847 bases of DNA. Source: a phage. The translations under genes were made by a program, and so were the position numbers. The notes under the pieces are model-generated. The model made no database searches. It was not told where the DNA came from and saw only the letters and a program-made list of their open reading frames with translations. The stretch is from sequence record AF039876.1. The stretch is one strand, 5' to 3'. Below are positions 1 to 847 of the stretch, piece by piece (position 1 is the first letter of the stretch; every line of letters begins with the position of its first letter).

Positions 1-14
1 GTGACTTTGCAGCA

Positions 15-533
15 ATGGCTAAGATCGGCGGTAGGTTACCTATTATGTACGCAGCTCTTGCTTCTAACGTATTCGTCCTACAGACTGCTTTTGAGAGCCT
101 AAAAGTAGGTGACCAGCTAAATAGGCTGGAACAGTTCGGTACTATTGTCGGCACCATGACAGGTACACCGGTACAGACACTAGCTTTATCACTACAAAAC
201 GCTACTAATGGTGCTATATCCTTTGAAGAGGCTATGCGTCAAGCATCCTCTGCTTCCGCTTATGGATTTGACAGCGAACAACTAGAGCAGTTCGGTTTAG
301 TAGCACGTCGTGCGGCTGCTGTTCTTGGTGTTGATATGACTGATGCACTTAACCGTGTAATTAAGGGTGTATCAAAACAAGAAATCGAACTTCTGGATGA
401 ACTTGGTGTTACTATTCGTCTTAACGATGCGTATGAAAATTACGTTAAACAATTAAATGCTACCAGTACAGGTATTAAATATACTGTAGATAGTTTAACT
501 ACATACCAAGAAACAACAAGCGTATGCAAATGA
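15..533 (+). CDS. Hypothetical phage-type structural protein, possibly tail tape-measure-like or minor tail protein; probably the N-terminal part of a longer interrupted gene
   Basis: Supplied ORF of 172 aa, ATG 15 to TGA 531-533. No minus-strand ORF competes. First codon position is G-rich and third position T-rich (gct, ggt, cgt, act, gtt), as expected for real coding sequence. Segments such as AYGFDSEQLEQFGLVARRAAAVLGV and ELLDELGVTIRLNDAYENYVKQ resemble tape-measure-like proteins from memory only. Frame 0 is also open at 3-14 (D-F-A-A) and there is no Shine-Dalgarno-like motif in 1-14, so the start may be upstream of the window. Confidence 0.75.
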   Translation: MAKIGGRLPIMYAALASNVFVLQTAFESLKVGDQLNRLEQFGTIVGTMTGTPVQTLALSLQNATNGAISFEEAMRQASSASAYGFDSEQLEQFGLVARRAAAVLGVDMTDALNRVIKGVSKQEIELLDELGVTIRLNDAYENYVKQLNATSTGIKYTVDSLTTYQETTSVCK

Positions 534-770
534 AGTTATTGCAAGAGTCTACTCCGTAGATTTGGATACCTAGATGATGCTCCTAAGGCAACCTCCTGGG
601 AACAATTTGCTGCCAATGCTAACTCAGCTCTAAGAAGTTTACAACAAAGTGCTGCTACATACTTAAATCCTGTTATGGATACCCTTAATACTTCCTATAC
701 CAAACTAAATCTCCCAGATGAGAAGTTCCGCAATGGCACTAATGCATCCGCTAAAAACTACTCAAGCTGA
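534..770 (+). CDS. Probable 3' continuation of the upstream gene: start-less open frame in the same frame, separated from it only by TGA 531-533 (frameshifted or stop-interrupted gene, possibly a pseudogene or sequencing artefact)
   Basis: Frame 0 has 78 sense codons from 534 to 767 and then TGA 768-770. There is no ATG, GTG or TTG in this frame before ATG 675, and that ATG has no RBS. A rough chance estimate for an open run this long is about 0.02, assuming roughly 5% stop frequency per codon. The translation from 573 onward (DDAPKATSWEQFAANANSALRSLQQSAATYLNPVMDTLNTSYTKLNLPDEKFRNGTNASAKNYSS) is protein-like, and all three frames are stop-rich only after 770. Confidence 0.4.
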   Translation, partial: SYCKSLLRRFGYLDDAPKATSWEQFAANANSALRSLQQSAATYLNPVMDTLNTSYTKLNLPDEKFRNGTNASAKNYSS

Positions 771-783
771 AAACGTTCAGCTT
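764..783 (+). terminator. Stem-loop overlapping the stop codon; weak candidate intrinsic terminator or RNA-processing/stability hairpin
   Basis: Perfect inverted repeat aagctgaa (764-771) / ttcagctt (776-783) with a 4-nt loop aacg (772-775). It is preceded by an A-run (753-757) and followed by only a short T stretch (the stem ends ctt, then t at 784), so there is no canonical U-tract. The stem has 3 G/C pairs out of 8. Confidence 0.25.
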
Positions 784-847
784 TATAGAGAATGCTGTAG
801 GGGCCCCAGAAGTTTAGATCCATAACCTAAGAAAGCGAAAAACGTGT

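Follow-up and report, generated by a model that had tools for sequence, protein, structure and literature searches.

Does an 847-nucleotide stretch of phage DNA in record AF039876.1 (the window, whose numbering is used throughout) carry a frameshift that was repaired by further changes nearby, or do its letters only appear to do so? The main frame, with codons counted from base 3, reads DFAAMAKIGG...TTYQETTSVCK, then a TGA at 531-533, then SYCKSLLRRFGYLDD; past this TGA it is open, reading SYCKSLLRRFGYLDDAPKATSWEQF..., until a stop at 768. Translation confirms that frame +1, which begins at window base 1, has no stop between 499 and 570, where it reads LHTKKQQAYANEVIARVYSVDLDT. The first-pass annotation described a patch at 499-573 with the geometry of compensating +1/-1 shifts, and explained it either by a pair of homopolymer sequencing errors or by a real frameshift with a second-site suppressor. 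Its reading of the letters was accurate: AAA at 511-513 and TTT at 561-563 are both present, G opens 9 of 20 codons in frame +1 versus 3 of 21 in frame 0, and the main frame has just two Cys codons, at 525 and 540. For an off frame, 75 open bases are nothing exceptional here, and stop-free gaps of 96, 102 and 117 bases occur elsewhere in frame +1.

The window is a piece of the phage T5 gene for pb2 (D18-19) and corresponds to positions 518-1367 of the 3660-nt coding sequence. In a megablast search of 50,697 phage records, five T5 records matched with 97.1% identity and 100% coverage of the window, and their annotation at this place is pb2, D18-19, tail length tape measure or pore-forming tail tip protein; the named T5 records with the pb2 match are AY303686, NC_005859 (gene T5.140), AY692264 and AY587007. 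When T5 pb2 was compared with the window by tblastn, its residues 174-402 were matched, residue 174 lying at window base 3. Moreover, the repaired protein matched PHROG 3779 (tail length tape measure protein) with E = 3e-130 over profile positions 178-406 of 1225. A Pfam scan of the protein as repaired by the first-pass annotation gave no significant family; the N-terminal region of the tape measure is without Pfam coverage. In T5, pb2 is a trimer that fills the lumen of the tail tube and serves as the tape measure for polymerisation of the tube around it; after receptor binding, the protein is expelled and forms a membrane channel, and peptidoglycan is digested by the peptidase domain at its C-terminus (PMC10038345).

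By homology, the window belongs to the Tequintavirus tape measure protein pb2 (PHROG 3779). The uninterrupted frame of ~1220 codons that characterizes pb2 is absent from the window as written, which has frame-0 stops at 531, 768, 786, 798 and 828 and 13 indels relative to T5; this broken frame is attributed to errors in the sequence, not to the gene. The 5' part is intact:

1-507, plus strand: accurate portion of T5 pb2, 100% identical to NC_005859, AY303686, AY692264 and AY587007.

This portion opens at the second base of codon 173 and ends with the first of codon 342, codons beginning at window base 3. Since the window starts inside the pb2 gene (codon 173), the ATG at 15-17, which opens a listed 172-aa ORF (MAKIGG...), is not a start codon; it is an internal Met codon, pb2 residue 178.

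The patch was resolved by an alignment of the window with T5, T5st(H), IrisVonRoten, HMD-P3 and six further relatives, down to ~78% DNA identity. Three extra bases, present in the window only and in none of the ten relatives, account for its frames:

508-509, plus strand: extra A, read as spurious; CCAG in T5 becomes CCAAG inside codon Q342 (gap in 10/10 relatives).
511-543, plus strand: pb2 codons K343-A353 (KQQAYANEVIA) in window frame +1; 11/11 residues identical to T5 pb2 by tblastn.
531-533, plus strand: TGA stop in the main frame, created by the first insertion and preceding the second and third.
543-544, plus strand: extra A, read as spurious; GCAG in T5 becomes GCAAG between codons A353 and E354 (cumulative shift +2).
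545-553, plus strand: pb2 codons E354-S355-T356 (EST) in the third window frame (+2); AEST is invariant in 10 relatives.
554-555, plus strand: extra C, read as spurious; CTCG in T5 becomes CTCCG ahead of codon R357 (cumulative shift +3).

The main frame is valid as far as Y341. The extra A at 508/509 displaces the true coding frame by +1, and because of this first insertion KQQAYANEVIA is found in window frame +1; the ten relatives keep it as [KR]QQAYA[NK][EA][VA]IA. Over 545-553, the frame beginning at base 2 reads QESTP. Once the third extra base has brought the shift to +3, the main frame resumes from 555 (RRFGYLDD...), at R357. The coding path thus leads from frame 0 to frame +1 (511-543), to frame +2 (545-553) and back to frame 0 (from 555). 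The true pb2 peptide over the patch is TTYQKQQAYANEVIAESTRRFGYLDDALKATSWEQF, residues 342-377 of 1219, in the N-terminal third of the protein; it is kept in 10/10 relatives, in which the family peptide takes the form LTT[YF]Q[KR]QQAYA[NK][EA][VA]IAEST[RK][RQ]FGYLD. Across window region 480-600, the letters of T5 NC_005859 are CCAGAAAC, TTGCAGAG and ACTCGTAG. The spacing between anchors on the two sides of the patch is 93 bases in all 35 homologous loci compared versus 96 in the window.

The patch described by the first-pass annotation is therefore present in the sequence, though with a different geometry. Instead of a +1/-1 pair at the A3 run (511-513) and the T3 run (561-563), alignment to T5 and relatives gives three one-base insertions and no deletion at the T3 run; each of the three sites is a single base doubled, not a homopolymer of three. 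The entry into frame +1 had been placed approximately right, and the exit wrongly, as no T is missing at 561-563. Frame +1 had been offered as real coding sequence: KQQAYANEVIA is genuine and RVYSVDLDT is not protein sequence. Comparison of the three-frame translations with homologs, the check that had been proposed, separates the parts: frame +1 fits only over KQQAYANEVIA, with EST in frame +2 and RRFGYLDD in frame 0. The repaired peptide TYQEQQAYANEVIARVYSVDFGYLDD deviates at Q-E and across RVYSVD from the true peptide, TYQKQQAYANEVIAESTRRFGYLDD, as given by tblastn and the relatives.

The patch is part of a larger burden of errors. A minimum-edit alignment to T5 requires 25 edits (12 substitutions, 5 insertions and 8 deletions), all past base 507: none in 1-507, 5 in 508-596, none in 601-690 and 20 in 691-840. 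MAFFT gives 27 differences, a slight overcount against the minimum-edit figure of 25; in this count the density of differences is 0% (1-507), 5.4% (508-600), 0% (601-690) and about 14% (691-847), and the probability that all 27 would fall by chance inside the last 340 bases is about 2e-11. Single-base indels make up 13 of the 25 edits, and each of the five insertions doubles an adjacent base. Substitutions are spread evenly over the three codon positions (5/6/3), and 10/14 are non-synonymous. The differences thus lie toward one end, are rich in indels and are blind to codon position, as expected of an artefact in a read tail. Two further elements complete the 3' half:

583-596, plus strand: two T-to-C miscalls, each with a C immediately before it; the four aligned relatives all have T.
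691-847, plus strand: error-dense tail, 20 edits in 157 bases (10 substitutions, 2 insertions and 8 deletions).

The change at 583 turns CTT into CCT (L366P), and the one at 596 turns TCT into TCC, silent at S370. T-to-C changes directly after a C are found at 583, 596 and 694 (CTCTT to CTCCT, CTCTT to CTCCT and TTTCT to TTCCT), which looks like a systematic signature of base-caller carry-over and not like independent mutations. Between the two clusters of errors, positions 601-690 form a 90-base island identical to T5; the decay of quality is not monotonic.

In the tail, ten further indels between 696 and 830 change the running frame offset ten times, and tblastn matches alternate among frames 3, 2 and 1. 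T5 pb2 extends to residue 1219, some 760 codons further, which makes the ORF end at 768 an artificial one. The stops at 768, 786, 798 and 828 are likewise artefacts; the true pb2 frame continues through them (…NTFLYQTKSSQMRVSAMARSASAKTTPAENVTALIENAVGAREDLDTYLKESEER…).

The T5 reference was compared with other T5 records and with natural relatives. NC_005859, AY303686 (strain st(H)), AY692264 (strain st0) and AY587007 (ATCC 11303-B5) are mutually identical over the 850 bases, and therefore the reference is not the source of the discrepancy. IrisVonRoten differs from T5 by 13 substitutions, of which 11 are third-position and synonymous; they lie in both halves and are accompanied by no indels. 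HMD-P3 and SelmaRatti likewise differ from T5 by substitutions along the whole stretch, mostly third-position and synonymous, with no internal indels; the four or five 'indel columns' counted for these two phages reflect end stretches shorter than 850 bases and not internal gaps.

Another copy of the altered sequence was also searched for. A 65-mer with all three insertions had no exact match in the viral, metagenome and genome contig collections, and degenerate patterns carrying each insertion singly gave 0 matches in viral contigs. In the same viral contigs, the wild-type controls were found: a 62-mer in 1 contig (T5) and the degenerate wild-type pattern in 24 contigs. A megablast search with the window gave no match among 5,426 complete E. 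coli genomes and 72,556 plasmids; therefore, the window is not an integrated or cloned copy present in those collections.

Some records of the relatives deserve a remark of their own. In T5, the endonuclease gene T5.141 (NC_005859 95777-96529) lies between the chaperone gene T5.142 and the tape measure gene, with a 4-base overlap with the start of pb2; it is an unusual insertion into an otherwise conserved chaperone-tape measure gene pair. In the partial genome of Klebsiella phage vB_Kpn_3 (MZ079855.1 24839-27115), the coding sequence of the 'pore-forming tail tip protein' has 2277 nt, compared with about 3660 nt in T5 and its relatives, and this gene may be truncated or frameshifted in MZ079855.1. 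The UNVERIFIED record MG065692.1, 'Campylobacter phage C13', is classed as Tequintavirus and has ~78% DNA identity to T5 pb2; Campylobacter looks doubtful as the stated host of this phage.

The match between the window and T5 is directly observed, as are the number of the differences, their types and their places. From their pattern it is inferred that the patch is almost certainly an artefact of sequencing, produced by base-calling errors in the decaying tail of an unpolished T5 read. The source would most probably be a single-pass Sanger-type read or a record derived from one. In such a read, the first ~507 bases would be accurate, after which quality would fall and over-called, dropped and miscalled bases would accumulate. 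Three over-calls within 47 bases (A508/509, A543/544 and C554/555) would coincidentally sum to +3, so that the main frame seems to leave and return, creating the illusion of a compensated frameshift. The sequencing-error alternative of the first-pass annotation is thereby upheld in substance, with three over-called single bases in place of a homopolymer pair.

The 3' tail of a Sanger read resembles the window in several respects: ~500 clean bases are followed by growing numbers of over-calls, drops and miscalls, the total length is ~850 bases, insertions double their neighbour and T-to-C miscalls follow a C. The window differs from such a tail in the clean island between its two error clusters. 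Compared with T5 D18-19 itself, the window is identical base for base over 1-507 and can be aligned over its whole length with 25 edits; it differs in that these edits (508-840) break the frame and are found in no T5 record or relative. Another source of low quality, or errors put in deliberately, could in principle produce the same pattern.

Among the other explanations, the one that survives best concerns only the kind of sequencing: the errors would come from a platform prone to homopolymer errors or from a long-read assembly left unpolished (454, Ion Torrent, nanopore), and not from a Sanger tail. The share of single-base indels among the edits (13/25) agrees with such a source, as does the fact that 5/5 insertions extend an adjacent identical base. 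However, errors of this type would span the read from end to end, with long homopolymers as their preferred sites. The window instead has correct A4 runs at 101-104, 196-199 and 374-377, and yet doublings of single bases after 507. The abrupt start of the errors after ~500 good bases and the length of 847 bases also fit a Sanger-type read better, which makes such a platform an unlikely source; even if it were the source, the patch would still be an artefact.

A decaying, non-functional T5-like copy, that is, a pseudogene or a cloned or integrated fragment with real mutations, would be expected to accumulate many frame-breaking indels and non-synonymous changes without selection, as seen here. 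Neutral decay, however, would scatter the changes, and the window has 507 consecutive bases identical to T5 with all changes on the 3' side, a distribution with the chance probability of about 2e-11 given above. The searches of complete E. coli genomes and plasmids, and those for exact matches in genome and metagenome contigs, yielded no such copy. Moreover, T5 is strictly lytic, and no integrated form of it is known. A pseudogene is thus a very improbable origin of the window.

Less probable again, by a clear step, is a real mutant allele of T5 pb2. The corrected form of this proposal has three +1 insertions that restore the frame and alter ~12 residues. In its favour, all three insertions, whose sum is +3, fall within 47 bases, and RRFGYLDD marks exactly the point at which the main frame is regained. 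The likeness to the '+ -' and '+ + +' combinations of Crick and Brenner in T4 rIIB is evident, in that three close +1 changes restore the downstream frame on paper. The window differs from that system by a nonsense codon in the shifted interval, by the renewed loss of the frame downstream and by the lack of evidence that its changes exist in any phage. In particular, the lengths of the indels sum to a multiple of three (+1 +1 +1 = +3), as suppression demands, while the shifted interval is not free of stops, since the first insertion is followed by the TGA at 531-533 before the second is reached, and the downstream frame is not intact, since ten more indels follow at 696-830. A stop inside the shifted interval and a frame lost downstream mean that no viable suppressed allele can be read from the sequence. 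Translation would end at about residue 349 of 1219, ahead of the second insertion, and after 690 four more frame-0 stops would follow along with the ten indels. The first-pass annotation had expected about 17 altered residues from a frameshift with a second-site suppressor; the number would be about 12, in a protein truncated anyway. Truncation of pb2 should be lethal, judging from the role of the protein as tape measure and membrane channel (PMC10038345). Furthermore, the insertions are carried by no other sequence in the viral, metagenome and genome collections searched, nor by any relative.

The insertions might be real if the DNA came from a T5 stock with a defective pb2 allele, only the tail after 690 being sequencing error. 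One example would be a laboratory mutant whose frameshift is partly compensated ('+ + +') and which is maintained by means of a helper or a suppressor. This origin is as improbable as the real mutant allele.

In tailed phages, programmed frameshifting occurs in the tail gene cluster, a circumstance that speaks for recoding; the event known there is a -1 shift, and it lies in the gene of the tail assembly chaperone (T5.142 in T5), upstream of the tape measure gene and not within it. Programmed ribosomal frameshifting or other recoding inside the tape measure gene is the least credible of all the explanations, because all T5 records and relatives have a single continuous frame, so that there is nothing to recode, no pair of overlapping frames is conserved (a single frame in 10/10 aligned relatives and at 35/35 loci), and no precedent is known for three successive shifts within 47 bases.

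Read-tail errors remain by far the best explanation, and the compensated-frameshift patch is not a real feature. Three errors of the same sign can produce an apparent return to frame as easily as a plus/minus pair, and repairs guessed from homopolymers, without a check against homologs, can give a wrong peptide. The window of AF039876.1 has value for quality control only and provides no basis for a variant pb2, for an ORF ending at 533 or 768, or for recoding. The real pb2 gene of T5 runs straight through the site, where most probably nothing biological happens.
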